Assembly (NCBI GenBank): GCA_030390025.1
Contig: CM059432.1
Span: 70,558,001 to 70,622,000 of the forward strand
Direction of reading: 5' to 3'
Origin: Squalus acanthias
Taxonomy: Eukaryota
DNA: 64,000 nt
Part shown: one piece after another, positions 52,285 through 52,467 of the stretch
Layout of the letters: every line of letters begins with the position of its first letter
How positions within the stretch are numbered: the stretch's first letter is position 1
Notes under the pieces: model-generated
Seen by the model: only the letters and a program-made list of their open reading frames with translations
Databases searched by the model: none
What the model was told of the DNA's origin: nothing
Translations under genes and position numbers: made by a program

Positions 52285-52467
52285 GTTACTATAACAATTC
52301 TACAAAAGTAGCTGTGAAAACTTTGAAACCAGGCACCATGTCTGTGGAAGCCTTCCTTGAAGAAGCCAATCTCATGAAGAAACTCTTACACGAACGATTG
52401 GTGCGGCTTTACGCAGTAGTGACGAAAGGAGATCCGATTTACATTATTGCTGAATTTATGGCCAATG
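52285..52467 (+). CDS. LYN: LYN exon 9 equivalent (kinase N-lobe: VAVK, alphaC, hinge), 183 nt
   Basis: ttgttttag| ... |gtcagt; (G)[80 protein letters not shown] matches Lyn. Confidence 0.96.

Follow-up and report, generated by a model that had tools for sequence, protein, structure and literature searches.

An alanine gatekeeper shared by the Lyn kinases of cartilaginous fishes, a predicted natural analog-sensitive Src-family kinase

Introduction

Replacing the gatekeeper residue of a kinase with a smaller one opens a pocket behind the adenine site and leaves the enzyme active, as set out in the accessible portion of PMC7583487. For the T338A allele of Hck, the available part of PMC3328272 reports that Km(ATP) rose from 12.1 to 62 µM and that the NaPP1 IC50 fell from >1000 to 53 nM, a gain in sensitivity of about 20-fold or more, in a kinase still active and regulated. 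A model of Hck in the same partial text contains a second clash, at Ala403, which T338A does not relieve. The use of such bumped analogs in cells is limited because their off-target effects begin at about 2–5 µM (PMC13161952, in excerpt).

A "natural AS kinase" has been defined as one with a Gly or Ala gatekeeper (PMC13211308, partial text), and outside some protists a natural kinase with a gatekeeper smaller than Thr is said to be extremely rare (PMC5091913, partial text). In the portions available of two further sources, T319 is named as the gatekeeper of LYN (PMC12823440) and is a contact of dasatinib (PMC12192854). The accessible text of a Src mutational scan names T341I only (bioRxiv 10.1101/2021.12.05.471322).

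Here we describe a LYN gene with an Ala gatekeeper in a 64,000-nucleotide stretch of Squalus acanthias DNA, hereafter called the window. The Ala gatekeeper is real and class-wide, and it has apparently gone unremarked: within the open-licence literature, a scope that leaves subscription journals outside, we found no paper remarking on a natural Ala gatekeeper of fish Lyn. The residue has long been present in the public annotations of 21 species and has been overlooked; it does not amount to a new system. The reading we prefer, at a probability of roughly two in three, is that chondrichthyan Lyn is a working enzyme with a nearly neutral, recurrent Ala gatekeeper and a predicted enlarged pocket, and hence a natural analog-sensitive kinase.

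Results

Nine coding exons of LYN lie on the + strand of the window between 17947 and 55111. Spliced, they give 1041 nt, or 347 codons, with no stop, and the splice sites are canonical (GT at nine of nine donors, AG at eight of eight internal acceptors), which bears out the sequence-only reading that the visible part of the gene is intact. Exon 1 (17947–18066) encodes the MGC N-terminus and unique domain with Y29 (Y32 of human LynA), and exon 2 (20429–20483) continues the unique domain. The first and second halves of SH3 come from exons 3 (20572–20671) and 4 (26773–26871), the start of SH2 with its FLIRES motif from exon 5 (26969–27072), further SH2 from exon 6 (30111–30260), and the SH2–kinase linker and GAGQFG loop from exon 7 (31845–31997). 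Exon 8 (52285–52467) holds the VAVK lysine K272, αC E287, β4–β5, the gatekeeper and the hinge, and exon 9 (55035–55111), the last LYN exon within the window, holds αD–αE. The motifs follow the SH4–unique–SH3–SH2–kinase order (MGC at residues 1–3, ALYPY at 67, FLIRES at 150, GAGQFG at 251, VAVK at 269). Pfam matched SH3_1, SH2 and PK_Tyr on P0133, a record 93.9% identical to the window protein, and tblastn found no match to residues 348–509 (HRD, DFG, tail Tyr) within the 64-kb window.

The window gene is evidently a plain orthologue of LYN, which we take to be a Src-family kinase of the SrcB subgroup. Its protein is 87–95% identical to chondrichthyan Lyn and falls inside the chondrichthyan Lyn clade with an SH-aLRT of 100, the split between Lyn and Hck likewise scoring 100. 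Among solved structures the best matches are to Lyn chains (2zv7, E 6.7e-28), with Hck next. On synteny, no gene next to LYN was identified within the window. The Thr gatekeeper that marks the Src-family consensus is missing here; it is a usual trait and no criterion of LYN orthology, because all chondrichthyan Lyn records examined have Ala.

The first coding exon of LYN can be spliced from either of two donors, which yields the LynA and LynB forms. A GTACGT donor sits inside that exon at 18007–18012, and its use would delete residues 21–40 to give the short LynB form, a predicted loss that fits the X2 isoforms, 489 aa long, in relatives. As predicted from the exon, cartilaginous fish retain both the LynA/LynB switch and the Tyr of LynA (Y29 here, Y32 in human).

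Upstream of the gatekeeper exon lies a 20.3-kb intron (31998–52284) containing retroelement-like ORF remnants. An ORF at 35136–35531 on the − strand has a weak RVT_1 match in Pfam (E 4e-4, below cut-off), and the segment at 41941–43596 looks LINE-like by eye with no Pfam match. Over six intronic ORFs, Pfam returned the weak RVT_1 match, a sub-threshold Sec3 match and nothing else.

The gatekeeper codon itself, GCT at 52449–52451 (+ strand), encodes Ala316 of the spliced LYN frame. It lies in the 183-nt exon at 52285–52467, which AG precedes and GT follows, with phase 1/1. Mapped on a 512-aa primate Lyn, Ala316 aligns with human Lyn T319, and the same column holds Thr in all five displayed structure alignments (Lyn 2zv7, 5xy1 and 3a4o; Hck). 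We take the position to be the equivalent of Src T338. The assignment of GCT to residue 316 at the gatekeeper position, first made from the DNA letters, is thus confirmed by the spliced frame and by the structure and primate Lyn alignments.

Ala at this position extends throughout the sampled cartilaginous fishes. All 35 chondrichthyan Lyn records listed, from 53 members in four clusters, have Ala; they come from 21 species of sharks, rays and one chimaera, and RefSeq entries with the residue include XP_041045665 (Carcharodon) and XP_067887957 (Heterodontus). At the level of protein records, Ala is shown to be fixed across these 21 species. The ortholog alignment proposed by the sequence-only reading upholds the gatekeeper Ala itself and shows that it is not peculiar to one genome, a case which that reading had named as one that would remove novelty only. 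HRD Asp, Asn, DFG, activation-loop Tyr and tail Tyr are kept in 11 of 11 tabulated chondrichthyan rows. The Lyn record of the little skate was found on 16 contigs, with Logan among the sources; given a multi-exon protein, this suggests that the contigs are transcript assemblies.

Wider sampling returned Thr in most cases. Among the 120 best homologs of the gatekeeper exon, 115 have Thr and five have Ala (Callorhinchus, Narcine, Stegostoma, Amblyraja and Latimeria). The 421 records outside the 50% representatives divide into 367 with Thr (about twelve of which are of the Hck, Blk or Lck type), 14 unreadable and 40 with Ala. Besides the 35 chondrichthyan records, the Ala set comprises two isoforms from Latimeria (P0022/P0246) and three teleost-type records, namely Triplophysa dalaica (P0322), one of two paralogues of Aldrovandia affinis (P0531), and a cyprinid-like Logan protein (P0282) that shares 95% identity with the Lyn of carp and goldfish. 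These bony-fish Ala records are each placed among Thr relatives, and each teleost case is a single record that could be polymorphism or error. Thr is found in the Lyn of lungfish (P0266, P0267), gar, sturgeon, paddlefish, amphibians and amniotes. The homolog searches and cluster look-ups returned no bichir, reedfish, bowfin or caecilian record and no chondrichthyan Hck, Lck or Blk, and lungfish appeared in them as a cluster member only. The recurrence of Ala in the coelacanth and three teleost records, with Thr in lungfish, goes beyond what the sequence alone had shown.

Across 150 Src-like representatives at 50% identity, 148 have Thr, one has Ile, one is unaligned and none has Ala; most are other Src-family members, as judged by eye from their motifs, and the sample may include no shark sequence. 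One Lyn-like representative with an Ile gatekeeper, P0376, has several damaged N-lobe motifs and is probably a pseudogene copy.

Because GCT is one transition away from ACT, a consensus error or polymorphism had been suggested as a possibility, with inspection of DNA at 52449 as the check. The stretch 52150–52650 is covered by contigs from two DNA runs, made on two samples in two studies, and these differ from the window only at an intronic position, 52601; at 52449 they show no difference from GCT. One run or the other may have been the source of the assembly, and rare variants are lost in contigs. Two RNA runs left the gatekeeper codon uncovered, their only match being a 57-nt piece of a paralogue. 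The decisive basis for discounting an error at codon 316 is comparative, namely Ala across the chondrichthyan Lyn records. With two DNA samples concordant and 35 of 35 listed records carrying Ala, consensus error and private polymorphism at the gatekeeper are refuted. The wider proposal that Ala reflects an assembly error, a private polymorphism or a pseudogene deserves almost no credence: it can appeal to final exons that lie beyond the window and to the codon uncovered in RNA, but it must also face catalytic motifs intact in 11 of 11 tabulated chondrichthyan records and 347 open codons with canonical splice sites.

Of 17 ATP-pocket positions the gatekeeper alone varies: on a tree of 51 rows, computed with the gatekeeper column left out, it needs five changes and the other 16 need none. 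Every Ala-bearing lineage was placed in that tree deliberately, so five changes overstates the rate. The list of 17 positions largely agrees with the available portion of PMC12192854. Gatekeeper changes are always between Thr and Ala. The pocket-lining residues K275, E290, M294, V303, I317, A384 and DFG (human numbering) are all unaltered, and invariance at 16 of 16 other pocket positions over 51 rows indicates, as far as sequence can, that the back pocket has not been refilled. In Callorhinchus (P0004), residue 293 on αC, adjoining the regulatory-spine Met, is Phe in place of Leu, unique in 43 tabulated rows; this Phe might partly refill the pocket of the chimaera.

Discussion

Most likely, Ala would have arisen several times by a single ACN-to-GCN transition, in the chondrichthyan stem, in the coelacanth and in some teleosts. 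The direction of change rests on step counts, made with Thr outgroups (Hck, Blk and other paralogues) and the accepted species tree: two deep gains take two steps, and one gain with two reversions takes three. Convergence is favoured over an ancestral Ala by about two to one, and is ahead by one step only. A single origin would place Ala already in the ancestral jawed-vertebrate Lyn, with chondrichthyans and the coelacanth keeping it and Thr being regained separately in ray-finned fish and in lungfish plus tetrapods, the kinase working equally well throughout; this is a possible history that we hold only tentatively. It is one step less parsimonious and no more, D313 and R338 (human numbering) are common to chondrichthyans and coelacanth against the other three lineages, and the gene tree is compatible with it, since a chondrichthyan and coelacanth Lyn clade is not rejected (p-AU 0.657; the tree held to it lies 6.7 lnL above the free quick tree). 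For that very reason the gene tree gives no help on the history. Lungfish Lyn, however, has Thr, and the three sites exclusive to chondrichthyans and coelacanth are fewer than the four exclusive to chondrichthyans and lungfish, so such sharing is background. The three teleost Ala records nested among Thr relatives indicate that the Thr-to-Ala direction occurs, and the reverse is seen in none of the 35 chondrichthyan records.

Over more than 400 Myr, co-adaptation may instead have kept the back pocket closed, so that Ala is fixed yet the enzyme is not analog-sensitive. Partial co-occurrence near the pocket would suit this account, which we think unlikely: D310 in the β4–β5 loop (window 52431–52433; human E313) is Asp together with Ala in chondrichthyans and coelacanth, I309 is found in Triplophysa and Aldrovandia, and Callorhinchus has F293 on αC. 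However, D313 (human numbering) occurs with Thr too, in some frogs and an eel, as does I309, and the residues lining the pocket are all the same. Selection for Ala, tuning Lyn in urea- and TMAO-retaining lineages or dampening its activity, would be a case of adaptive convergence, and we regard it as improbable. Chondrichthyans and coelacanth both retain urea/TMAO, the gatekeeper alone varies in the pocket and always between Thr and Ala, and none of the 150 Src-like representatives has Ala; against this, the teleost cases lack an obvious urea/TMAO physiology, we found no compensating residue common to more than two of the five Ala lineages, and the lack of reversions is unremarkable. The chondrichthyan crown makes up 0.63 of a tree length of 4.9, over which about 0.6 changes would be expected at the inflated rate, and entrenchment drawn from absent chondrichthyan reversions is not significant. 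With no common companion substitution, and with the absence of reversions expected from branch length, positive selection is not shown. Cold adaptation was rejected as the cause, as cold-water icefish and cod have Thr. That Thr is nearly invariant elsewhere speaks for a degree of purifying selection against Ala; as to why other sampled Src-family members lack Ala, the simplest guess is that constraint on Lyn is relaxed, with adaptive tuning (for example to urea/TMAO) a weaker one. It is similarly doubtful that Lyn alone among vertebrate Src-family kinases repeatedly gains Ala since selection tunes its ATP pocket, by convergence in the urea-retaining lineages (chondrichthyans and coelacanth) and once more in some teleosts, with a class-wide analog-sensitive allele as by-product. 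If that reading were true, Lyn could be shut off acutely in unengineered shark or skate B cells, in the oldest antibody-based immune system.

Under our preferred reading of a working kinase with a nearly neutral gatekeeper change, Lyn would tolerate the one-transition replacement of Thr by Ala, with fixation in the chondrichthyan stem and recurrence elsewhere. By analogy with Hck T338A, Km(ATP) would rise a few-fold and stay far under millimolar cellular ATP; because a five-fold shift would be nearly silent at such concentrations, Ala would be close to neutral in Lyn. Retention of catalytic activity is argued for by long conservation and by the precedent of Hck. Ala316 falls within the "Gly or Ala gatekeeper" definition, and chondrichthyan Lyn is accordingly classed by its residues as a candidate natural analog-sensitive kinase; the Hck precedent also makes plausible the analog-sensitive pocket that the sequence-only reading had proposed. 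To judge from the engineered allele, 1-NA-PP1 and 3-MB/3-IB-PP1 would inhibit shark Lyn at concentrations in the tens of nM; compounds that depend on the Thr hydroxyl would bind it less well. The Ala change would bring analog sensitivity with it as a side effect.

A vertebrate class that carries the change chemists engineer would serve as a test, set by nature and tolerated for a long time, of the purpose of the Thr gatekeeper in Src-family kinases. By analogy with Hck T338A, bulky designer inhibitors would likely switch Lyn off in these fishes without genetic engineering. If shark paralogues keep Thr, Lyn could be addressed by chemical genetics in sharks and skates, animals in which knock-ins are impractical, and its activating and inhibitory roles in B-cell and IgNAR signalling could be probed in this way. 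Results obtained with Src inhibitors in mammals may not carry over to cartilaginous fish.

Among known systems, chondrichthyan RefSeq Lyn is the same gene as the window LYN, with the same exon-encoded domains, LynA/LynB donor and Ala gatekeeper. Mammalian, bird, amphibian, lungfish and most ray-finned Lyn differ in having Thr319 where the window has Ala. Small gatekeepers with a naturally enlarged back pocket are described, in the partial texts of PMC5091913 and PMC13211308, for the CDPK1 of Toxoplasma and Cryptosporidium (Gly) and for Giardia kinases, the lone Giardia Ala case being described there as catalytically inactive. Those protist enzymes are Ser/Thr kinases, whereas Lyn is a vertebrate immune tyrosine kinase. 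Engineered Hck T338A (PMC3328272) has the identical substitution at the identical position in an otherwise identical pocket, in the closest paralogue of Lyn. Unlike that allele and the as1/as2 alleles (PMC7583487, partial text), the chondrichthyan Ala is natural and fixed class-wide; by analogy, chondrichthyan Lyn would functionally resemble the engineered as2 alleles.
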